Below are positions 11,646 through 43,790 of a stretch of 64,000 nucleotides of DNA, in pieces. Where the stretch lies: contig JBNZDD010013683.1 of the NCBI GenBank assembly GCA_050575255.1, positions 2,397,867 through 2,461,866 of the forward strand. The letters are read 5' to 3'. The stretch comes from Harriotta raleighana. Taxonomy: Eukaryota. A program made the translations under genes and the position numbers. The first letter of the stretch is position 1; every line of letters begins with the position of its first letter. A model generated the notes under the pieces. That model was not told where the DNA came from. It worked only from the letters and a program-made list of their open reading frames with translations, and made no database searches.

Positions 11646-11875
11646 CTAACTATACTTTTTTAATCTTGCTCTAGTCCAAGATGTTCCAACAGTAAGATTA
11701 TCCCTTGGTTTGATGACCACAGATGGCTGTGGCTTATACAGCCGAACTGATATCGATCTGTCCTTCTTAGAAGTTACTTTTCTGTTGACATCTTCTGAGC
11801 GTGGCACAGGAATGGGCTTCCATGGAATTGGATTGCAATAGCTTGGAGTTGGATAAGAACTCCCATCATAATACC
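11646..11875 (-). CDS. CCDC34: CCDC34 last coding exon (coding exon 7)
   Basis: tctag|GG TAT..., encodes (G)YYDGSSYPTPSYCNPIPWKPIPVPRSEDV...TRARLKKYS*. Matches the recalled CCDC34 C-terminal motif SYPxPxxxNPIPWKPI; phase 1 fits the upstream exon. Confidence 0.93.
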
Positions 11876-12854
11876 CTAGAATGCAAGAATCAGAGAATCA
11901 CTACAATGACTATACGATACATTAAAAGAAAAATCAAATACATTCATGACACTAAAGGGAATTTATAGAGAGGTAAGCACCACTCAATTGTATAATCGCT
12001 TATTTTTAGAAATTAAATGCTGGGCAACAAGTTATTGTTTCAATATACAGTACTCTGTCATGGAGCAATTGGATTAATATCTTCGCCCATGAGTGGTTCA
12101 GATTTAAGGATGCTGTCAGGCGAACAATTGTGAAGACTATGTGCTTTCCCAAATTGTTAAATAAATCTCAAATGAATATGGAGCTGAGCAGAAATAGAGG
12201 AAGCGTTGCTTTCATACATCTTAAAATGTGAAGGAAAACCAAATTTTTCCAAAAAACAAAATGGTCAATTTTGTCCCTTCTATGTGCGAGAAATGTAAAT
12301 ACACATTGTGATGCTGTAATGTAAAAACTTCAACCATCAAGCAAGTCATGACCTTTTGAACATCTTCACAAAACTATGATAAACACTGAGATACATTCAT
12401 CAAACTTTGAAGCATGTTAAACAGCAGGCTGGACTGGTTGTTATCAACTAAATAAGGGATGACAGCAGTTAACAGGGGGAAAGCATTGTCACGGGGCAGA
12501 CACTTCGATGAAGCACAACAGCAAAGTGCAGCCAGCAAGCAAAAACAACTGTGATAAACAAATTGAACTAAAGATTGTTGATATGAAACCCAAAATAAAT
12601 ACCAAATACTGAGGCTCAAATAAAAGACAAAACTCTGAAGATTCTATAATATTTGTACAAAAAGTATTTGCAAATACTTGATTGAAATTGATATGTACTT
12701 CAAGAACCAAGTTACCACAAGCCAAAGGGATTGAAGATGATGTCTGATGTGCTGTTTGGATAGATGTGGGAATTAACAGATGCATTCCCAAAGTAAAGTA
12801 AAATTTTACAATTTAATATAACCAGATCATATTAACAATTTTGCCCTTACCCAA

Positions 12855-13000
12855 GCTGTTTGTGGGATGGTGCTGCGCGCAATTGGCTGCTGCATTTCGC
12901 CCACAAATCAACTCACCTTACAATAAATTCTGTGAAGCGCTTTGAGACGTCTAGAAGATGTGAAAAGCTATACACCAAATGTGAAGATTATTATTATTAT
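12855..13000 (+). mobile_element. tRNA/Deu-SINE 3' half
   Basis: gctgtttgtggga..gctgcgcgcaattggctgctgcatttcgcccac...tgtgaagcgctttgagacg...(tta)n. Confidence 0.85.
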
Positions 13001-13036
13001 ATTATTTGCTTTTTTGTGTGTGTGAATAGCACAAAC

Positions 13037-13178
13037 CTGTGAGTTTTCCATTTGCATAACCAAAACTGCTTGGGGCTGTCCGAGGTCTGGTTTGGGCTTT
13101 TTCTAACCACACTTTGAAAACTTGGTTGGCTTTTTCCTTTCTTTCTTGTATTTTAGCTGTTCTTTTTTCTTCATCCTC
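13037..13178 (-). CDS. CCDC34: CCDC34 coding exon 6
   Basis: gtttag|GAG...ACA G|gtttgt. EDEEKRTAKIQERKEKANQVFKVWLEKAQTRPRTAPSSFGYANGKLT(G); GYANGKLTG is as recalled for human CCDC34. Confidence 0.93.
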
Positions 13179-13353
13179 CTAAACACACAAGATAATGAGA
13201 ATACTCTTTGTATGTATAGTTACCATTGTGGATCAGATTCAGAAGGTTCAGAAAAGATTTCCCTCTCCCTTGAATACAAAACAAATTTATAAGGAAGGCA
13301 CTTTTCAACGTAAGAAGGATGTCCCAATGCAAATGTAATGTAAAGTGCAAATA

Positions 13354-14212
13354 CAGTAAAACCTTGTTTATCCATGACTCGAATAATCGGAAAACCCGTT
13401 CAACTGTCACCTCAAAAAAAAGTCCAGATTCGATTAACCGGAAGTTATCCAGTGACGCGTTTAATGTCGGGTCTAAACTCGTTCTGGGTCCCTTTAAAGT
13501 CGCGTTTTTTTTATACCTCATTCGCATGAATTGGAGCATGGGCTCCAAAGGGCGTGTCTCTCTATCTCTTCCCCAATCACAGTCTCTCTCTCTCTCTCAC
13601 ACTCCCCCAATCACAGTCTCTCTCTCTCACACTCTCTCTTCCCCAATCATAATCTCTCTCTCTGTGTTTCTCTCTCCCCGAATCAGTCTCTCTCTCTCAG
13701 TCTCTTTCTGACACTCTCTCTCTCCCAATCACAGTCTCTCTCTCTCAGTCTCTCTCTCTGAGGCTGAGATAGGGGAAAGCATAATGGAGCGAGAGAGAGA
13801 GAAAATGGCAGGCAAGTTGATGCAGAGAGAGAGGGAGGGAGAGAAAGGAAAGGGAGTGGGGGGGTGAGGATTATGGATAAAATTTATATGATGGATTCAG
13901 ACTGAATATCTTTGAGGGTCTGTGTGTGTATCTGTGTGTGTGTGTGCTGGCCATTAGGTCTAAACTCGTTGCTTTTTAAACTCGTTGTTTTACCTCCCGT
14001 CAAATCAGTGCTGCAATTGCGAAGTTAAGTATAAATAATAATGTACTAATAGAATATTCTGTTATTATTTAGTCTATTATTAATATGGTATGTGTTAAAA
14101 TAATTTTTAATTTTTAAAAAATATATATATTTTTAAAATCCGTTCAACCGGAAAAACTTTTTAACTGCCACTGTCCAGGTCCCATGGGTGCTGGATAAAC
14201 GAGGTTTTACTG
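13354..14212. mobile_element. Tigger/pogo-like MITE (859 bp) with 21-bp TIRs and TA target duplication
   Basis: Left TIR cagtaaaaccttgtttatcca and right TIR tggataaacgaggttttactg pair at 20/21; TA on both flanks; internal CT/GA/TG simple repeats. Confidence 0.85.
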
Positions 14213-14243
14213 TAAATAGTTCCCATAAAAAACATAGTTCTAC

Positions 14244-14402
14244 CTTTTCTTTTCTTTTCTGCTCTCTTTCTTGCAGCTTTTTTTTGTTAATCCATTCTTG
14301 AAATTTTTCATTTGCTTTTTCATGTGCTTGTCTCCTTTGTTCGTCCTCAGCCTCTTTAATCTTCCTCTCCTTGCAAAGCTTCAATTTATTTTCCAACTTT
14401 TC
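14244..14402 (-). CDS. CCDC34: CCDC34 coding exon 5
   Basis: ctacag|GAA...AAG|gtagaa, 159 nt, phase 0-0. EKLENKLK...KANEKFQEWINKKKLQEREQKRKEK coiled coil. Confidence 0.92.
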
Positions 14403-15585
14403 CTGTAGACAATCCACAAACTGTTAAAATGTGGGCACCAAAATGCAGCTCAAATTTATTTCTTAATGCATATAAGCTTCCTCCTTAGTGTGTCGAAAAC
14501 TACAGCAATCACAAACAATCCTTGGTATCAACATTTTATTTTCATTGCAGTGAAACCTTGAATAAAGGTAAAAGTGCCATCACACCAGCTACAAAGATTG
14601 TTTCATCGCAAGGATAGTACCTGTATTATAATTTGGTAGCAGATTCAGTTTTATAGTTTTCAAAGAGATTATCTAAAAACTTATTGTATAATTGATTGTC
14701 CTTTCTGAAGAGAAACACTCCCACAATTTCAAAGCATTTAGTCTTACAAGAGATAAAACTCATTCTTAACTGTGGAAGATAGATTTAAGTGACAGGCAGA
14801 TATTGGACCTCAACCAATATCAATTAGTTTGAAGATTGGCAAGTGTTGTCTAAATATTTTCAAATTCTGCTAGTTTCAGTTGATCACAGTACAATACTTA
14901 CAGGAAAAGTTTAAATTATATTATGATGTCAACTACATTTTCTGTTGAATAAAAACACTTTGGAAGTTTGATCAATTTCCTGTCCAATCGGATTGACATT
15001 TTGGAAAGCTCTGAGGAAGGATTTACTGAAACTGCAAGTCAGATGATACTAAATCTACCCTTCAATGATCTGAGTGCAGAATAAAAAAAACAAAATGAAA
15101 AGTGCTCGACACTAATGTGAATATATTGCATAAATACAGATGGTAGTTAATAGCAACTGTTTATCTTGCAGCCTGCACACTGCAGGCAAGAATTCAAAGT
15201 TTATTTTAAAATGAATAAGTTTTACTTGTTAATCACAAGCTTGAGTCTTCATTCCATTGATCATTGACAGTGCTGACTCTGGAAGATGTCAGTTACCAAC
15301 AAACAGTGAAGTTTCTTTTCCTACAACGCTGCTTTGGCAAATGTGTGTAGCATTTAATGACAGCAAATCTTGTCAATCTTCATGCAGCTATCTTTAATTT
15401 AAGGAATTTTTGATTTTGAAAACAGATTAATATTTCAATTCATATTTATAAATGTAATTTTCCAAATCGAGATTATAGACCCGTTACACTAGTTTGCAAT
15501 AATTAAATGCAATTTTCAAATTAAGTTGACAATCTAGTTTTAGGAGCTCCATACCTGATCCAGCCAAGCAATCCGCGACTGCATT

Positions 15586-15978
15586 CAATAAAAGCTGGTT
15601 TATACGACACCCAACCAACCAGAACGCCTAACCAACCGGTATCTCCCAATACAATTTACCATTCCAGCAAACTAATTTCATACCGGAGCCACCTGGGATA
15701 TTCACGAGTACACTTTGCGAATGCGCACTTATTAAATTTAAAGAACTCTGGAATTTTTATTTTACTGATCATTTTACCGAGTGTGCTAGAATGCTTTATT
15801 CGTAAGTATCCATACAATACCCTGGTATTATTTAGTCTATTATTAATATGGTATGTTTTAAAATAAGTTAATTTTTGTGTAGGATTTTCGGCAACTTGCC
15901 ACTTGAATATCCGACATATTTAATTATAATATGGCACCAATCAGATCCCGAGGGTGCCAGATAAATGAACTTTTACTG
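15586..15978. mobile_element. Tigger-like MITE, same family as 9454-9722, inverted relative to it
   Basis: Ends in gataaatgaacttttactg|ta. Internal ttatttagtctattattaatatggtatgttttaaaataagt is the reverse complement of about 9552-9595. Left end degenerate. Confidence 0.7.
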
Positions 15979-16254
15979 TATATTCAAATTGATCCACTTT
16001 GCAACAATTGTGGTACAACTTGTAGTACAACTGCTCCCAATGCAAAGCAATCCTTTTCATTTAAGATTTCCTGGGCAAATTCTCTAAAGCATTAATGTGT
16101 TTTCAATATGGGCTTCTATGAGTGAAAGCAACATTTCAAGCATTACAAAAACTATTATGAAGAAAAATAACAACAAGTTTGATTTATATAGTGCCTCCAT
16201 GCTAGACAGCATCTCAGAGTGCTTAATAGATATAAGATACAAGACATTTTTTAC

Positions 16255-16362
16255 CTTCTCATTCTTTTCCTGAACCCATTTTTTGTGCATTTCATGTGCA
16301 CGAATTGTCTTCTCTTCACATTTTTCTTGCACTTTCAAGTTTGCTTCCTTTAACATTACTTC
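16255..16362 (-). CDS. CCDC34: CCDC34 coding exon 4
   Basis: ttgcag|GAA...AAG|gtaaaa, 108 nt, phase 0-0. EVMLKEANLKVQEKCEEKTIRAHEMHKKWVQEKNEK (human recalled as HKEWVQKKNEQ). Confidence 0.92.
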
Positions 16363-17518
16363 CTGCAAAGTAAACAAGATATTTTCTCAGTAACTAGCTA
16401 AGTAACTGGGGGTTTAATCTAAGCGAATCTCCCTTGTGACAAAATTCAAAACTTTCCTGCTTGTTTGTTGTATATTTTGATCGGCTCAATCAATGTGACT
16501 GATAAAAGATGAAGAACTGCTTGATTTTTCATCCATACTTAAGCAGTACTTCATAAAGAATTTCTCTCAATTTGCATTCATAGCCAACCTCTCTACAGTT
16601 CTTTTACTCCCACTGACAAGAATGATTTGTGATCCCAATTCTATTTGGAAGTCGGTTCACGCATTTTGAGAGTCATAATTAATTCATCCCAAGTGGGCAA
16701 TTCCCATTGTATTTTAACCTTTTTGACTAGGACTAAACATAGTACAGATGAGCAGTCCCATTGTATTGTTAGGAGGGTTATTGTTTCAAGTTTCAAGTAA
16801 GCATGTGAACTGCGATAACTGTTTGGAAAGTCTCTTCGAAAAAGTTATTACTGCTACCAAAATCTCTGCAGTTAATTAAAGAATTGTGCGTTGTAACAGA
16901 ACTGATGTTGCTTTCAATAAAAAGACAAATAGACAAAAAGCAGGAAATGCCATCACAATAGAATGGAAAAGATTGTGAACTAGTTTGCAATACAAGGCCT
17001 ACAAAGTAAGGAAATTACTGTTGATATACTGCAACTGCTGTTATAATTTTATGGAACTTTATGTTGTGCACTTAGTTGAAACTATAAATAAATTTTTGAC
17101 TGGCTAAACTGGATGAGATTTACCAAGACTTTGTATATTAACTGGTTACAAAAAAACTAAATTTATCAAAAAATATAAACATTACTGTCCCATAAAGTTT
17201 GTTTGCACTACACATAAACTATGGTGTTTGATTTTTAAATAGTTCTCACAAACTTTGAAAAATGAAGATATACTTGGCTATACTAAATATGAGTACCAAC
17301 ATTCAGAAAACAGATTAACTAACGTTGTGTAAAGTTGGCAAAAGATGCCTAAGTTAGGCTGACAATATTAAGATAGAAAACTCCCAAATGAAAGTAGTGA
17401 CAATGGAGTGACATAGAGACATTCATTATTTTCTGAAAAACAGGTTACAGACTGGCTTTACATTCTATACCTGGATTTTATGTCTTCGCAAATTCATGAA
17501 AACAATTAAAGCACTTGC

Positions 17519-17648
17519 CTGATGAGATTTGTTTTGCATTTCACTACGTTCTTCCTTTGTTTTCTTTATTAGCCATTCCTCCCAAGCAGTCAGAGATATA
17601 TCTTTAAGAAGCTCGCTTCCAATTTTCTTTCTTGTGGAAGTTGTAAGT
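17519..17648 (-). CDS. CCDC34: CCDC34 coding exon 3 (GC donor)
   Basis: ccgaag|A CTT...CAT CAG|gcaagt. LTTSTRKK...LTAWEEWLIKKTKEERSEMQNKSHQ (human recalled as LTPWEVWFIGKEKEER). An alternative in-frame GT donor lies at 17470. Confidence 0.85.
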
Positions 17649-17940
17649 CTTCGGAGCAAATGCAATACAAGTATTTTATTAGAGCAACACGTGTATATAT
17701 ATACTACGTAAAACTCTTGTTGCTGACATTAAGTCAAAGAACGTAAGAATCCTTATCAATTACCTATAATAATAATCCCTGCATTTGATATAATGTCTTA
17801 TTGTGTCTTTGAACCACCTCAAAGTACAGTATATACTGTAAAGTGAATTGACTGTGAACATTAAGTGAACATAGTTTTCTCACAACCAAACAAAGAGCTA
17901 GTATATTGTATTAGCCTGTGCTAGTTGACAATAGTTGTAC

Positions 17941-18171
17941 CTGGATGTACATACTGTCCGCCTCTTTGAAGCAGTATCTGTCAGTCTGTTTCCTGCGCAT
18001 TTTGCTTTTCTGCTTAAAGCTCTAATTGGAGATTTGTTTGTAGCCTCATCCCTTTCTTCGGATTCATAGCTGTCGTGGTAAATCAGAGAAAGCAGAGAAG
18101 AGGTGGAATCTCCTGAAGAGCCAAAATTACAATTCCTGTGCTCGTCTTCTTTTCTTGACCAATTGTTTTGC
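17941..18171 (-). CDS. CCDC34: CCDC34 coding exon 2 (paralogous to coding exon 1)
   Basis: ttgtag|G CAA...TCC AG|gtacaa, 231 nt, phase 2-2, open. Contains DSTSSLLSLIYHDSYESEE. Confidence 0.75.
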
Positions 18172-18415
18172 CTACAAAGGATTGAATAATGGTTTAGAAT
18201 TTTCAATAAATTGACATGGAAAATTATATTTGATGGGGCAGCATATTATAAGCACCTGTTCAGCTATGCAAAGTGTTGCTATCCATACAACCAATGGTCA
18301 CGGTATACCATTGTCTCTTCAGGGAGCCACTTACAGGCCAAGGAGAGATGGAGAAAATCAGATGGACAAGAGTACAATCCTTTTATCTATCATGTGAAAA
18401 TATGAAGTGACCTAC

Positions 18416-18732
18416 CTGGATTCTCTTTGTATCTTTGGTGTAGAAACAGTTGGTTTATTTAAATCAGCATCTGTCCCTATACTTGAAGTAGACTCTTGCA
18501 CTCGGTCTGCAATTCTACATGTTTGCTTATTTGGAGCCTCATTTTCTTCATCTTCACTCTCGTAGCTTTCGTGGTAAATGGGAGAGATTAGGGAAGAGGT
18601 GGAATCTGCTGGAGAAGACAAATCACGACTCTTGGGCTGGATCTCTGGTTCTAACGTACAACTATGGTCATGTGAACCTGAATGGCAGGTTGTGTTTTTT
18701 GAAGTTTCCTGGTAACTTGATTCAGAAGACAT
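18416..18732 (-). CDS. CCDC34: CCDC34 coding exon 1 (start ATG at 18732; exon begins about 18758 with 5'UTR)
   Basis: Acceptor ttttaccag|; in-frame TGA two codons before the ATG; donor TCC AG|gtaggt. DSTSSLISPIYHESYESEDEE resembles the recalled human NSTRSLLSPLGHQSFQFDEDD. Confidence 0.85.
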
Positions 18733-19408
18733 TCTTCAGTTATTCCACAGAAAGTGCCCTGGTAAAAGAAGCGCAATGAATGTCAAGATAAGGCATTTGA
18801 GAGATTACACCAATTGTAACCATCTACTTTGCTTTCAAACTTTAATCAATAGTTTACCATCCTGATCCCAACCCGGGTCCAAATCTCCAACTGGCCAGCT
18901 CCTTGGGACGTCCTCCCGATGTGGAAGTTGCTATACCATTGTTATTGTTAAAGGAGTAGATAGTGTTTAGAATTTAATAATCTCAATGTGTTACAGAAAT
19001 GCCGTCAAGTGCGGCGTCTGAATCTATAGAGCCATGGTAAGGGTTGATTCTTGATTCGCACATGTAGAAACAGTAGTTTAAGAGTTGCGGGGTACAACAA
19101 CAAAATTATACTTATAAAGCACCTTTCACTTCAGGAGTAAAATGAAGATTGATTTAATTAATTTTAATAAATATTCCAGGCAGCCGTATGTCGATAAAAT
19201 GTGAAAATAGTTATATAAAATGCAAGGATTATTATTATTATTATTATTATCTTTCTGTGGCTCTCCCAGTCCCTGTTCAACAAGATATCCAGATTCAAGA
19301 AAATAACAAATCCTTTAATAATAATCCTTGCATTTGATATAGCATCTTATTACGTCTTCAAGACGTCTCAAAGCACTTCACAGAATCTGCAATGCTGCAG
19401 CGGAATTT

Positions 19409-19733
19409 GGAGCTCGTGTGGCTTAGTGGTGAGAGCACTCGCCTTACAAGCATGAGACCTGTGTTCGAATCCAGGCAGATCAGGGCAAAACCTTGGGCAA
19501 GTTTCCTTACTCCACACACCTAATAATAATCCCTCCAAAAAATCTGCAGTAGTAAAATTGGTCATTTTCAACCTATGACTGTTTGTGGGATGCTGCTGTG
19601 CGCAATTGGCTGCCGCGTTATGCCCACAAATATACAGTCAATTCACTTTACAGTATTTTCTGTGAAGCACTTTGAGACGTCGATAAGATGTGAAAAGCGC
19701 TATATCAAATGCAAGGATTATTATTATTATTAT
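19409..19733 (+). mobile_element. Full-length tRNA-derived SINE with Deu-like core and L2-type tail
   Basis: A box tggcttagtgg, B box gttcgaatcc, core gctgtgcgcaattggctgccgcg, tail gtgaaaagcgctatatcaaatgcaagg(att)n. Partial copies flank it at about 19190-19249 (+), 19317-19387 (-) and 19733-19863 (+). Confidence 0.9.
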
Positions 19734-19867
19734 AATTGGCTGCCTTGCGTTTCGCCGACAAAGTACAGGGGCGAATCATTTCACAGTGTATCCTGTGAAG
19801 GGCTTTGAGACATCTGGAAGACGTGAAAATATGCTACATCAAATGCAAGGATTATTATTATTAGAGG

Positions 19868-20797
19868 CTGAGTGAGAGTGTACGAATGAATGAGTGTATG
19901 TATGAATGAGTGACAGTAAGTGTGTGTATTGAGTGAGCGAATGAATGTGTGTGTGCAGTAAATGAGGGTCTGAGTAAGTGAGCGTGTATGTGAGTGAGTG
20001 TATGATTGAGAATAACTGAGTGAGTGACCTGCTGAGTTAATGAGTGTATGTATGAATGACTGTGTGACTGAGTGAATGACTGAGTGACTGTTTGAGTGTG
20101 TGACTGACTGAGATCTGTGTGTGACTGAGTGCATGACTGACTGTGAGTGTGTGACTGACTGAGTGACTGTGTGAGTGTGGACCTAGTAAATGACTGACTA
20201 GAGTGACTGTGTGAGTGTGTGACTGACGAGTGACTGTGTGAGTGTGTGACCTAGTGAATGACTGACTGAGTGACTGTGTGAGTGTGTGACTGACTTGAGT
20301 GACTGTGTGACCTAGTGAATGACTGACTGAGTGACTGTGTGACTGACTTGAGTGACTGTGTGAGTGTGTGACCTAGTGAATGACTGACTGAGTGACTGTG
20401 AGTGTGTGACTGAGTGCGCCTTGGGACGTCTTCCTGACATGAAACCGCTCTATAAATGCAATTTTGTTGTTGTTGTTGTTGTTGAGTGAATGACTGACTG
20501 AGTGTGTGACTGACTGTGAGTGTGTGACTGAGTGAATGACTGACTGTGAGTGTGTGACTGACTGTGAGTGTGTGACTGAGTGAATGACTGACTGAGTGTG
20601 TGACTGAGTGAATGACTGACTGTGAGTGTGTGACTGAGTGTGTGTGTGTGACTGACTGTGAGTGTGTGACTGAGTGTGTGTGTGACTGACTGAGTGTGTG
20701 ACTGAGTGTGTGAGTGTGTGACTGACTGTGAGTGTGTGACTGAGTGTGTGAGTGTGTGACTGACTGTGAGTGTGTGACTGACTGTGTGAATGTGTGA
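19868..20797. repeat. Complex TGAG/TGAC/TGTG low-complexity tandem array with embedded L2 tail (20415-20483)
   Basis: About 930 bp of shuffled tgac/tgag/tgtg/tgaa units; higher-order unit cctagtgaatgactgactgagtgactgtg repeated several times. Confidence 0.95.
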
Positions 20798-21058
20798 CCG
20801 CTGATTTCAATTCACAAAATCCTCACCTTTCCCCACCGGCGGCTTCCTGACGGGACGAGCGGCGCTTTTTACTTTATTATTATTTATTATTATTATATAT
20901 TCTCCTCATTGCTCCCCATCCCCCCCACAGCCAGGAGCTGCGGTCGGTCCCCTCATTCCTCACTCACAACCGAGGTCCCGCTCCCAAAATGGCGGCCCGC
21001 GTTAACCGTTACCCATGAGGCCACTCGGGAGATGGAGCGGTTGATGTTGTGGGTGTTT

Positions 21059-21105
<47 letters not shown>

Positions 21106-21250
21106 NGGGGCGGGGGGGTGGGGTCACGCTTCTCTCTCAGCCAATCACAGAGCGACCGTGGTTCGAGAGCGCCGACGTCGTCACCGTGGCAACGCGTCGT
21201 CACCGTGGCAACGCGTCGTCACCATAGTAACGCGTCGAGCCGCCAGGCAT
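20797..21250 (-). promoter_or_regulatory. CCDC34: CpG-rich CCDC34 promoter and probable non-coding first exon
   Basis: The most CpG-dense patch in the window. YY1 motif CAAAATGGCGGC (20985-20996), CCAAT box (21141-21145), three RFX X-boxes (21180-21231), and minus-strand donors aaag|gtgagg (20826) and gtt|gtgagt (20967), 2.1-2.2 kb upstream of the 18758 acceptor. Confidence 0.75.
21056..21123. repeat. (TG)n followed by a poly-G run containing an N (21106)
   Basis: Seen directly; run length unreliable because of the N. Confidence 0.85.
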
Positions 21251-26687: not shown

Positions 26688-27964
26688 TTAGTCTTTGCTC
26701 CGTGGAATATTATACGCATAGTGAACCAAAGGAAATCCCCGACTCTGATAGAAGCAGGCCCTCCCACAGGCCTGGACTTGATCGGAACTGTCCGAAACAA
26801 AGGAGTCTCCCTCGTCAGCATACTCTGAATGAGCAGATTGAGTCCCACAGTCTGACCAGTAGCCACTGGGTCTCTGACAAGGAACTACAGCCAGAGCTGG
26901 GCAGCTGTGTGACTTCACCAAATGTTTACATGTTGAGGGTTTTGTCACGAGCAGTGATTCACAACAGTCACATACGGTGATATTGCCCTGCAAGTGGGAA
27001 TACATCCCACAGTCATAGTAAAACTCCTGGGGCACACAGTCACCTTGAGTATTCACTGAAACGGCTAGCGATTTGTCTTTCTGCTTTGGGCGCCATTTCA
27101 GCATGCTCCAGTCTTCTTTGAAGCGGGGATTGAAGAAAACGTACAGGACAGGATTCAGACAAGCGGGTAGCGGGAAGAAGATTAGAGTGACAGACTTCAT
27201 TATCTCAGGGCTGATGGAGATTGCACTGATAAGTGGCGCGAACGAGAAAAAAGCAACAGGACAGAAGAAAATGCAGTTGGTGAAAATTAACCAGGCCACG
27301 TGCTTAATCATACTGGACTGGGAGCTTTCTGCAAGATCCTCTTTCTCCAAGTTGCAGTACAGCTTTGTGTACACAACTACCATGAGCAGGAAGGCTATCG
27401 AGTTGAGCAAGACCAGAGTTACTGTGTAGCCCAAGGAAGGAGATTCTCCAGTGGGGAAGGGCAGACAAAGAGGAGATGCTGAAAATTCTCCAATGTGAAA
27501 CCATGGCAGGCAAGCTATCACTGCAGCAACCACGACAGCAAGGGAAGCAACTATTCGGAAATGCACCTGTCGATGACTTTTCCCTTTTTTAATTAGGTCA
27601 CGCGTGGTAATGCTCCGTTCAAAAGCCGCTAAAATAAGGAGGAAAATGGACGCTTCGGAAGAGAACATAGCGAGGAATCCAGCCATTTTGCAGCCACTTC
27701 CCATCTCCCACCACGCGCCAAACTGAGCAAATTTCCCCCAAGACATTGCGTCTAGAATCGTCAAGCTACCGGTATAGACTCCCATTAAGAGGTTTGATGT
27801 CGAAATCAGGCCCACAAACAGCTTCGCAGAAGACAGCGGCGCACGTGATGCAAATGTTGTTATGACAACAAGGATGTTGAAAATTAAGGCCACCAGAAAA
27901 ATGAACCACACAGTGAGACGTATCATCCAACTTCCCAGCAAATGTCGGCAAGGCTTGAATGCAC
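26688..27964 (-). CDS. LGR4: LGR4 exon 18: 7TM domain and C-terminal tail
   Basis: caccag|GT GCA TTC AAG CCT TGC...; GAFKPCRHLLGSWMIRLTVW...KHVAWLIFTNCIFFCPVAFFSF...LPACLNPVLYVFFNP...QSRGFPLVHYAYNIPRSKD*. The tail is diagnostic of LGR4 rather than LGR5/6; synteny with CCDC34 agrees. Confidence 0.97.
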
Positions 27965-37296: not shown

Positions 37297-40200
37297 GGTT
37301 TGGCCACCCAGGCAGCTGCATCCACTATTGCACTTCATTGAAATCCAACTGACAACCCTGCAGCCCGTATACAGATAACATCGTTTGAAAAGAAACTCCG
37401 CTCCTACTTTGGCTGGGATTTTTTTTTCCCCCTTTACCTGCTCGTGCTACCCATGTTTTGCCAAAGTTTAGACTGGAGGCTTTTTCTTTCTCTCGCTCTT
37501 AAACCCCTCCACCCACCCAGCAAATAATTTTTTACCCCATAGCGAACAACAACTTCCATTAGCACCCTTCGCAAAGGAGCATAAATCAACAAATCAAACA
37601 AATAATAGTAATCCTTGCATTTGATAGAGCGATATAGACGTCTCAAAGCACTTCACAGAATATACTGGAAAGTGAAAGTGAAAAGGAAATTCAGGTAGAA
37701 ATAATATGGATAGAAAACTAAAGTTAAAAAAAGTAGGAAAACTAGAACTGTACATTATAAATGCCTCTCAAGGACTTATAAAAAGGCACAGTGCTAAGCA
37801 CGGGGCAATGGGAAGAGTATCAATCAGTCTGCACCTCTCCTACCTGCAATCTTTCAGCTAGGGCAGATATGGTTTGTAATAAACGCAGCCTATTAAAGAT
37901 ACCGGAAGACAGAGACAGCGGGGAAAACAAAAAGATCTATGCATGTTGTAGACAATGATATTTTATCCTATCTCTCCAATACTTTGTATCTCGAATCCAA
38001 AATACTTCATGTTCCACAGTGGTTCCATTTTGCTGGCGAATACACCAGGAAAACTTATTCCATGGCTGCTGTTCCCCCCAGGCCCCACCCCCACTCACAC
38101 AAACTCCCTTTGATAATTTTGAGGTCCTTACTTGCTCATTATTATTATTATTATGGCTATGCTATGCTCATTCGACATTAATTCTATTTCCTCCTCCCCT
38201 CTTTCTCCCCCATTATCTTTCACCGCTTTCGGATGCTATAGCTTGCTTGATGCTACACATAAAGCTTTCATCAGGAAATAAGGAGCTCCAGTCCACATAC
38301 GTGTATTGCACTCAAGCCTTCATTGTGGATACTGATAGGATTCAAGTCAGTTCATGCAATTCAAAGCTTTAACCTGCTCCATTCTGTGAATTTAGTTTTT
38401 TCGGGGGCTTTGTAAGACACAACATCCTGCTTTAAGAAATTCAAATCTGAATGTTTTAAGGCAAAACATATTTCATTTCATTTCAACTATGCAGCTAATG
38501 TGAGCAGCTTTTATTTTACCAGACCAACTGACGACAAGCACAGGCCTGTGGCTCCTGAATTGACAGCTTGATTCCTAAAATTAGTTCACGCTGGCTGGGC
38601 GTGGCATGGGCAGCAAGAAGCAAACACGTCAAAAGATTTTCTGAGCTATCAGTTTTACCAGTCCAATATTCCAAAGCCCTCAGATTGTACAAAATATTTA
38701 AGTTTCCCGCCTGAACATTTGTTTTAAAGCATATAACACTCAGAGCTTCCATAATAAAAATCAGTCCATTTTAAAAAAATCATTGGCAAAATAAATATCA
38801 TTTTGTTATTCTCACAAAGAATTAACTTTTGCTGTTAAGCTTATTTCAGCAATTATGTGTTCATCTNGGTTTGGCCACCCAGGCAGCTGCATCCACTATT
38901 GCACTTCATTGAAATCCAACTGACAACCCTGCAGCCCGTATACAGATAACATCGTTTGAAAAGAAACTCCGCTCCTACTTTGGCTGGGATTTTTTTTTCC
39001 CCCTTTACCTGCTCGTGCTACCCATGTTTTGCCAAAGTTTAGACTGGAGGCTTTTTCTTTCTCTCGCTCTTAAACCCCTCCACCCACCCAGCAAATAATT
39101 TTTTACCCCATAGCGAACAACAACTTCCATTAGCACCCTTCGCAAAGGAGCATAAATCAACAAATCAAACAAATAATAGTAATCCTTGCATTTGATAGAG
39201 CGATATAGACGTCTCAAAGCACTTCACAGAATATACTGGAAAGTGAAAGTGAAAAGGAAATTCAGGTAGAAATAATATGGATAGAAAACTAAAGTTAAAA
39301 AAAGTAGGAAAACTAGAACTGTACATTATAAATGCCTCTCAAGGACTTATAAAAAGGCACAGTGCTAAGCACGGGGCAATGGGAAGAGTATCAATCAGTC
39401 TGCACCTCTCCTACCTGCAATCTTTCAGCTAGGGCAGATATGGTTTGTAATAAACGCAGCCTATTAAAGATACCGGAAGACAGAGACAGCGGGGAAAACA
39501 AAAAGATCTATGCATGTTGTAGACAATGATATTTTATCCTATCTCTCCAATACTTTGTATCTCGAATCCAAAATACTTCATGTTCCACAGTGGTTCCATT
39601 TTGCTGGCGAATACACCAGGAAAACTTATTCCATGGCTGCTGTTCCCCCCAGGCCCCACCCCCACTCACACAAACTCCCTTTGATAATTTTGAGGTCCTT
39701 ACTTGCTCATTATTATTATTATTATGGCTATGCTATGCTCATTCGACATTAATTCTATTTCCTCCTCCCCTCTTTCTCCCCCATTATCTTTCACCGCTTT
39801 CGGATGCTATAGCTTGCTTGATGCTACACATAAAGCTTTCATCAGGAAATAAGGAGCTCCAGTCCACATACGTGTATTGCACTCAAGCCTTCATTGTGGA
39901 TACTGATAGGATTCAAGTCAGTTCATGCAATTCAAAGCTTTAACCTGCTCCATTCTGTGAATTTAGTTTTTTCGGGGGCTTTGTAAGACACAACATCCTG
40001 CTTTAAGAAATTCAAATCTGAATGTTTTAAGGCAAAACATATTTCATTTCATTTCAACTATGCAGCTAATGTGAGCAGCTTTTATTTTACCAGACCAACT
40101 GACGACAAGCACAGGCCTGTGGCTCCTGAATTGACAGCTTGATTCCTAAAATTAGTTCACGCTGGCTGGGCGTGGCATGGGCAGCAAGAAGCAAACACGT

Positions 40201-40437
40201 CAAAAGATTTTCTGAGCTATCAGTTTTACCAGTCCAATATTCCAAAGCCCTCAGATTGTACAAAATATTTAAGTTTCCCGCCTGAACATTTGTTTTAAAG
40301 CATATAACACTCAGAGCTTCCATAATAAAAATCAGTCCATTTTAAAAAAATCATTGGCAAAATAAATATCATTTTGTTATTCTCACAAAGAATTAACTTT
40401 TGCTGTTAAGCTTATTTCAGCAATTATGTGTTCATCT
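37297..40437. repeat. Apparently identical 1570-bp direct duplication joined by a single N (probable unmerged contig overlap)
   Basis: 37297-38866 equals 38868-40437 (offset 1571; ORF-track translations identical); N at 38867. Confidence 0.95.
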
Positions 40438-42372: not shown

Positions 42373-42524
42373 CTGCATCAAAAAAAAAACACACACACAC
42401 CAAAATAAAGAGGTTACATCAACATTTCCGAATTACTATCTGGGCCATGTCATGTGCAATGCTGCTCCATACAAAGAACAAAAAGCACTGGGTCAATTGT
42501 TGAATTTCAAGGGTATTCAATAAG

Positions 42525-42645
42525 TTACAGGACATTGTGGATCGAGTTGGGGAGTGGGACTAATTGGATAGCTCTTTCAAAGAGCTGGCACGCGCACTGT
42601 GGGCCAAATGGCCTTCTTCTGTGCCTGTAGGATTCTATGATTCTA
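42525..42645 (+). mobile_element. CR1 LINE extreme 3' end
   Basis: gggagtgggactaattggatagctctttcaaagagctggcac...gggccaaatggccttcttctgtg...attctatgattcta (CR1 octamer tail). Confidence 0.8.
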
Positions 42646-42869
42646 CGTCCTTCTAATTAATGCTTGATCATCGGATTAACTCACTGTTCCCACTTCAGCA
42701 GATTCCTCAAAGACCAATTATGCAGAAACAAATCGGTTTCCAATAATAGCAAAGAGTTGAAAATGGATCGCTTGGAAACCAATTTTTGTTGCACAGTTGA
42801 AGTGGATTTAAATTGTAGTTGTGCTGCCAAAAAACAGAAATCCCTCATTATCGTGATCCAGGCACTTAC

Positions 42870-42944
42870 AGGTCTTTCGAGATTTACTGTTCCTGCAAAG
42901 CCATTATATCATGCTAGCTTCAACATTCTTTGTTACGTATCACT
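42870..42944 (-). pseudogene. LGR4: Decayed remnant of LGR4 exon 10 (pseudo-exon)
   Basis: Fragments VIR / EASMI*W / AGTVNLE, broken by indels, followed by donor |gtaagt, at the expected place between exons 9 and 11. No open phase 2-2 frame reaches this donor. Confidence 0.6.
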
Positions 42945-43790
42945 AAACTTTGGCCAGTGACACTGGGCAAGAGAGGAATAAGTCTGCACCATACTGAACC
43001 TGAAACTAATCTCTATTCACATGTATGAAGCCAAATCACTTTGTTCGGTGAGGAAGTGTACACATTTATTTCAAAGAAATAGATATAGTTCAAAGTACTG
43101 TACTATCTATTTTTTTCCTCAATATGAAAGCAAGAATCCTAACACAGTATAATCTGTGTCATTGTTTAGAAGAAGGTAGAAATCTATAACATAGCCCATT
43201 GGGCTATGCTTCATTAAGTGTAAAGCAGCACAGAACCTCTGCCCATCAAGTCTGAACTGATGTTATCTATGTGAGCCACTTGATCTAATCCCACTCTCCT
43301 GCTAGTTTCCCCATATCCTTAACATTCCTCTGGTTTCAAACATCCAAGACAACATTCTTTCAATCCATTACCCTGCCTCCATATTCTTACGTACCATTTA
43401 TTCATCCATCCTTCTTTTGAATGCCTTAGTCATCCGCAACCTTCCAAATCTGCAGTATTTCCACCTACTGTGAACGTTTGTTTTGGATATTCAAAGTATT
43501 CCCTGAAGTTTTGAATTGACTAAACCGTAATGATAAATACAGCAATAGGAACTAAGATTTGTACTAACCATTACAAATGTGGTCCAATCGTTTTACAGGT
43601 TAACGCAGGAACAGTCATATAATGTGAGGGGCAAATGCACATTAAACATTACAATAGTTTCTGTTGGCCTATAGTATAGACCAATAGAACATTCAAACCA
43701 TTTCATAACAGGTTGACTTTTCATAAATAATGTCAAAGTGTCACAATTAGAATGGAACCAGAACAAATGGAAACCAAACCAAGGACTTAC

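Follow-up and report, generated by a model that had tools for sequence, protein, structure and literature searches.

The Wnt-boosting receptor LGR4 appears to lack, in the chimaera Harriotta raleighana, the repeat located where its outer arm bends, and this raises the question of whether the exon for that repeat has been lost from a working gene or is simply misrepresented in the assembly. The stretch that we analyzed, called the window here, comprises 64,000 nucleotides (GenBank assembly GCA_050575255.1, contig JBNZDD010013683.1, positions 2,397,867 to 2,461,866), and coordinates below refer to it unless a contig is named. An initial annotation, made from the letters alone, had suggested that exon 10 of LGR4 has naturally decayed into a pseudo-exon.

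An LGR4 gene lacking an intact exon 10

LGR4 occupies the window with exons 3 to 18 on the minus strand, and CCDC34-like exons come next. The last LGR4 exon is 98% identical to LGR4 of Callorhinchus milii and ∼90% identical to shark LGR4. Its identity to coelacanth LGR4 is 79%, compared to 55% and 42% at the paralogue loci, identifying the gene as the orthologue of LGR4, a type B LGR. Genome-wide, we found this single LGR4 locus and two paralogue loci, which we read as LGR5 (C13732) and LGR6 (C13688); the latter name is our assumption, based on its motifs.

Exons 3 (59647-59576), 4 (56689-56618), 5 (49932-49717), 6 (48879-48808), 7 (47081-47013), 8 (44035-43964) and 9 (43862-43791), as well as exons 11 (42372-42301), 12 (41512-41447), 13 (33520-33449), 14 (32567-32496), 15 (32074-31949), 16 (31311-31187), 17 (29799-29728) and 18 (27964 to the stop at 26688), are open and have AG/GT ends, so that the 15 exons described as intact by the initial annotation are indeed intact. 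The seven-transmembrane domain and tail are also undamaged, with the frame open up to the stop. Exons 9 and 11 are each 72 nt long and of phase 2-2, and we likewise found no intact exon 10 between them, that is, between 43791 and 42372.

Exon 10 persists as a decayed remnant

The dead exon lies at 42944-42870 (minus strand) and measures 75 nt, compared to 69 nt for an intact exon 10. Its acceptor is lost, there being no AG immediately before 42944. Further lesions follow in the layout originally proposed: codons for VIR (42943-42935) are followed by a 13-nt insertion (42934-42922), by EASMI-stop-W (42921-42901), in which a TAA (42906-42904) replaces a conserved Gln codon, and by a deletion of 8 nt, where 4 nt (42900-42897) stand in place of the expected 12. 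The 3' block AGTVNLER (42896-42873) is followed by one surplus base and by the former 5' splice site GTAAGT (42869-42864), which is itself intact.

Across the three alignable blocks, 13 of 18 remnant codons encode the consensus residue of bony vertebrates, derived from 48 distinct exon-10 peptides, and the remaining five are one base off. The human exon-10 peptide given in the initial annotation proved to be residues 302-324 of a primate LGR4 (P0048) from our protein search. When intron 9 was searched with a nucleotide profile from the same peptide set, a method suited to neutral decay, the best match scored 23-32 bits across six settings and ended every time at the donor of the remnant. This score was reached by 0/300 shuffles and 0/88 other chunks of the window (Gumbel p 8e-4 to 7e-6). 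A frameshift-tolerant protein profile also had its best match at the remnant, but a weaker one (p ∼0.02), its score being reached by 3/150 shuffles. Pairing the old donor with each AG acceptor up to 230 nt upstream introduced a stop in 17/17 combinations. On sequence grounds, we regard the presence of a decayed exon 10 at 42944-42870, within an otherwise working LGR4, as confirmed, and its natural pseudo-exonisation as supported: at the nucleotide level the remnant outscores all 300 shuffles, and its lesions recur in reads and in related organisms.

The lesions recur in reads and in related organisms

A contig of organism A, which carries the same species label, spans 42605-43135 with four differing letters and no gaps. 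Raw reads, named as a check by the initial annotation, gave the same picture: seven reads from a 2026 run with this species label had no listed difference over 42760-43060, at a depth of 1-4, with 6 of the 18 listed sequencing runs covered. Contigs of the related organisms B, C and E span the whole remnant without an indel, including the 13-nt insertion, whereas that of organism D covers its 3' half only, without a gap and at a depth of 2.2; identities of these four to the window range from 89 to 97%. The listing for organism B gives 27 of its 29 differences, and none of the 13 gap letters falls within the remnant. Neither the TAA stop nor the GTAAGT donor has a listed change in organisms C, D and E. 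Sequencing error as the cause of the lesions is thus refuted.

Exon 10 is absent from LGR4 across cartilaginous fishes

We retrieved 47 chondrichthyan LGR4 proteins and set aside four fragments that do not span exon 9. Among the remaining 43, which come from 20 species of holocephalans, sharks and batoids, exon 10 was present in none. Exon 9 is joined directly to exon 11 in 38 of these proteins, bearing out the expectation that such splicing stays in frame, and the other five are models that skip further exons. These counts refer to the matches listed, with 10 members of a 25-member skate cluster falling outside them. In this skate cluster, eight Logan proteins of 862-941 aa show the 9-to-11 junction; the contigs encoding them are 3.6-4.0 kb long, and because of this length we take them to be spliced. 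For chimaeras, the junction is documented by C. milii gene models; a short-protein search across it returned nine matches, none above 62% identity, and no chimaera transcript fragment. Judging from these proteins, the loss extends beyond this genome and is common to all 20 chondrichthyan species with LGR4 examined.

Annotated chondrichthyan records, such as those of C. milii (XP_007885856.2), Heterodontus (XP_067902576.1), Leucoraja (XP_055505113.1) and others, have the same junction as the gene described here. They give the short protein without remark, whereas in the window the fossil exon can be seen, and this fossil marks the 23 residues absent from shark LGR4 records as truly lost and not as an overlooked exon. 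In two stingray X2 isoforms (P0010 and P0138) exon 11 is skipped as well, so that both non-canonical repeats are gone.

Exon 10 is kept in 98 of 108 bony-vertebrate LGR4 matches. Among the ten without it, a clean skip is seen in the X3 isoforms of two tortoises and in one cobra model, four further models carry alien sequence at this position, and three others make up the rest. The tortoise isoforms, from Gopherus (P0026 and P0046), represent exon-10 skipping as an alternative, beside an isoform that keeps the exon. Both LGR5 and LGR6 of the present genome have an intact 69-nt exon 10, and the exon is kept in 10/10 chondrichthyan LGR5 proteins. The exon is therefore ancestral and its loss specific to LGR4, and cartilaginous fishes likely make an LGR4 receptor that is one repeat shorter.

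Neither an assembly error nor a replacement exon explains the locus

Could these observations stem from a faulty assembly, or from an intact exon 10 or a further LGR4 copy located elsewhere in the genome? The assembly is imperfect nearby, with an exact 1570-bp duplication around an N. Across the remnant, however, raw reads and independent contigs agree with it, the remnant stretch is single copy in the genome, no LGR4 locus besides the present one was found apart from LGR5 and LGR6, and a degenerate exon-10 pattern allowing up to three mismatches had no match in the genome. We consider this explanation practically excluded. A new exon in place of the old one, which the initial annotation had offered as a possibility, is hardly more credible. 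The proposed 63-nt stretch (42999-42937, minus strand) exists as described, being open, of phase 2-2 and preceded by an AG, with SMVQ-like residues inside. Intron 9, however, contains 122 stretches of this kind, open, phase-compatible and bounded by AG/GT or AG/GC. Its donor is weak here, and the donor GT is altered in organisms B, C and E by a change of base 42936 (G); organism E additionally lacks one base at 43000, in the acceptor. Chondrichthyan LGR4 proteins have no peptide inserted between exons 9 and 11, and we rejected this candidate as very improbable.

Origin and age of the loss

Our preferred explanation, whose probability we put at about 0.7, is a single loss of exon 10 in the common ancestor of chimaeras, sharks and rays, leaving a decayed exon, a 9-to-11 join and a 16-repeat receptor without LRR11. 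Being of phase 2-2, exon 10 is symmetric, and the single repeat that it encodes sits between the surface for R-spondin/Norrin (LRR3-10) and that for ZNRF3 (LRR15-17); we propose that skipping the exon would have been tolerated for these reasons. Loss of the acceptor would have fixed the skipping, after which the exon would have decayed neutrally, and neighboring residues expected to have faced LRR11 (F286 and N289) would have been replaced. The loss likely dates to 450-420 Myr ago, followed by slow decay of the fossil, which may still be readable because holocephalan DNA changes very slowly. According to PMC3964593, chondrichthyans and osteichthyans split ∼450 Myr ago and holocephalans and elasmobranchs ∼420 Myr ago, and the neutral rate of C. 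milii is the lowest among vertebrates; a low mutation rate is also described for sharks in PMC10587355. A single loss in stem chondrichthyans fits these splits and the slow rate.

Organisms A, C and E have in common five substitutions on ∼42 nonsynonymous sites (12%, with a Poisson range of ∼4-29%) and three indels, a dating basis of five changes only, and part of these may date from the time when the exon was still functional. In the intron-9 region, these organisms differ by 5% (15/298) and 9% (24/270). Set against this divergence, the shared lesions imply that most of the decay is older than the split of A, C and E.

Parallel losses would be an alternative: ancestral chondrichthyans would have used exon 10 optionally, and chimaeras and elasmobranchs would each have lost it independently. 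A remnant readable after ∼420 Myr is unusual, its dating range is wide, and the X3 isoforms of two tortoises show that the skip can recur. On the other hand, exon 10 is missing in all 20 species, all of which also have F286S and N289I in the adjoining exon, and most of the decay predates the split of the sampled chimaera-like organisms; we therefore find separate losses unlikely. A different question is whether the remnant might be retained as a regulatory element, for example as a 23-nt poison exon (42892-42870) spliced at the former donor, or as a decoy splice site tuning the LGR4 mRNA level. The old donor is perfect, and any use of it would lead to a premature stop. Positions 42862-42906, 45 bases forming the 3' half, have no listed change in organisms C, D and E, and in organism E 0/43 bases are changed compared to 24/227 (p 0.019, for a stretch picked after seeing the data). 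This unchanged 3' half is a hint against pure neutrality. Nevertheless, the remnant as a whole shows no significantly higher conservation than its flanks (2/81 versus 13/217, p 0.37; 6/81 versus 18/189, p 0.65), the pooled and longest-run tests gave p values of 0.10 and 0.055, and the acceptor of the putative poison exon has a poor pyrimidine tract. A retained role thus seems doubtful, and we keep to a single ancestral loss followed by decay.

Lineage-specific exon loss via skipping is a known process, as described in PMC2231371. Both the cases treated there and the LGR5-delta5 variant of PMC11678308 likewise involve a frame-preserving exon that was skipped and then lost. Compared to those cases, the present one concerns a seemingly constitutive repeat of a single-copy developmental receptor and a remnant that is probably hundreds of Myr old.

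The lost repeat and the ligand-binding surfaces

Exon 10 encodes residues 302-324, including the eleventh solenoid strand in the coelacanth model, and thus corresponds to LRR11. Judged by sequence, this repeat is non-canonical, with Ala occupying the position of the ladder Asn. The ectodomain of human LGR4 comprises 17 LRRs, and its beta-sheet is broken at the LRR10-LRR11 junction (PMC12488874, PMC3937510). R-spondin is described as sitting on LRR3-9, with ZNRF3 also touching LRR15-17 (PMC12488874), and Norrin as contacting LGR4 from the N-cap to LRR10 (PMC12234955). With LRR3-10 on one side and LRR15-17 on the other, the lost repeat therefore lies between the binding surfaces. The chondrichthyan ectodomain has 16 repeats instead of 17, since exon 10 is missing. 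The initial annotation was correct in placing a non-canonical repeat C-terminal to the R-spondin site, LRR11 lying beyond LRR3-9, and in expecting a receptor one repeat shorter.

At the ligand-contact positions given in PMC12234955 and PMC12488874, residues H157, W159, A181, T183, H207, H209, Y234, S257 and R460 are invariant in 20/20 chondrichthyans, while R40 and R392 differ. R392 (human numbering, exon 13), which faces ZNRF3 according to PMC12488874, is His in 20/20 chondrichthyans. Chondrichthyan LGR4 is predicted to still bind R-spondin and to clear ZNRF3/RNF43.

Human and other bony-vertebrate LGR4 (GPR48; PDB 4KT1, 9KB6 and 8XFP) is the orthologue of the chondrichthyan receptor, with 75-80% identity, the same exon phases, an adjoining CCDC34 gene and mostly conserved contacts, but it has the 17 repeats that include residues 302-324, whereas the chondrichthyan protein lacks these residues. 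A related event is the skipping of human LGR4 exon 6 through c.618-1G>C, which is likewise an in-frame loss of an LRR-sized exon after loss of the acceptor (PMC9927937). In contrast to exon 10, which lies outside the R-spondin site and whose loss became fixed in a whole class, human exon 6 belongs to that site (LRR7/8), and its loss causes disease according to that report.

In the AlphaFold model of C. milii LGR4, the 9-to-11 junction has a pLDDT of 81-93 and regular strands at 301, 325 and 349, which predicts that the protein folds through the junction. This model superimposes on human 4KT1 with an rmsd of 5.8 Å (418 aligned residues), and the coelacanth control, which has exon 10, with 6.5 Å (459 aligned). 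Because the control fits the human ectodomain no better, the models say nothing on curvature. Compared to the regular bacterial LRR protein 4u08, the deletion model gave a somewhat better match (Z score 38.3 against 33.9), a difference too weak to draw on.

Changes in the neighboring exons

Exon 9 of the present gene has Ser at human F286 and Ile at N289. Position 286 is F in 99/99 bony-vertebrate LGR4 rows with a residue there and S in 20/20 chondrichthyan LGR4, while the corresponding position of LGR5 is hydrophobic (L, F or Y) in 99/99 rows with the motif. Similarly, N289 is replaced by I in 20/20 chondrichthyan LGR4. At conserved sites, exons 9 and 11 carry proportionally more fixed differences (5/33) than the rest of the protein (20/530; Fisher p 0.012), in a comparison that omits exon 10 and two alignment artefacts. 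For L284I and T347F, the chondrichthyan residue agrees with that of the paralogues and may be the ancestral state. With LGR5 and LGR6 as outgroup, only F286S and perhaps N289I look derived among the five differences in these exons. We infer that F286 packs on LRR11, and F286S and other changes flanking the lost repeat may have compensated for its absence.

Significance of a shortened LGR4

The variant is real and class-wide, affects a known receptor and arose by an ordinary known process, exon loss by skipping. The short protein itself is already in RefSeq. A search of the openly accessible literature on LGR4, chondrichthyans and exon loss returned no report of this loss.

To our knowledge, every LGR4/5 ectodomain solved so far consists of 17 repeats and is broken at LRR10/11. 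Cryo-EM shows that both R-spondin, held on LRR3-9, and LRR15-17 grip ZNRF3, so that the length and bend of the arm between them should matter. A whole vertebrate class in which the intervening repeat is deleted thus offers a natural test of arm length and bend, with candidate compensating residues already named. One speculative scenario, which we hold tentatively, is that cartilaginous fishes have spent more than 400 Myr with an LGR4 that has no kink-forming repeat and a re-surfaced neighbor (F286S, N289I). Its arm might then be straighter and shorter and might place R-spondin differently against ZNRF3, setting Wnt gain differently from LGR5 and LGR6, and the donor half of the exon may have been kept as a regulatory element. 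Independently of function, the loss provides a clean shared character for Chondrichthyes, and the remnant illustrates for how long a defunct exon can remain recognizable in chimaera DNA.

Other features of the locus and its paralogues

Downstream of LGR4, the CCDC34-like exons extend over ∼11650-21250 (minus strand), with four pieces matching PF13904 below the cutoff and a long CA-rich low-complexity tandem tract within the gene (∼19800-20820); CCDC34 is the neighbor of LGR4 in human, too. The 1570-bp tandem duplication, in which 37297-38866 is exactly repeated as 38868-40437 on either side of the single N at 38867, lies in LGR4 intron 12 and is a scaffolding artefact. The exon-6 region of LGR5 occurs twice on C13732 (loci L003 and L004, ∼18317860-18320030 of that contig), ∼1.4 kb apart and with identical translations, probably an assembly duplication like that in LGR4 intron 12. 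In exon 10 of LGR5 (L003), a conserved Phe-Pro reads Phe-Leu, the Pro being present in 10/10 other chondrichthyan LGR5 proteins; this is either a variant or a sequencing error. Intron 9 of LGR4 contained no tandem repeats and no Rfam matches above threshold. It does carry ∼128 bases of a high-copy SINE-like repeat (42496-42625) that are missing there in organisms B and C, and this piece is a lineage-specific insertion usable as a phylogenetic marker.
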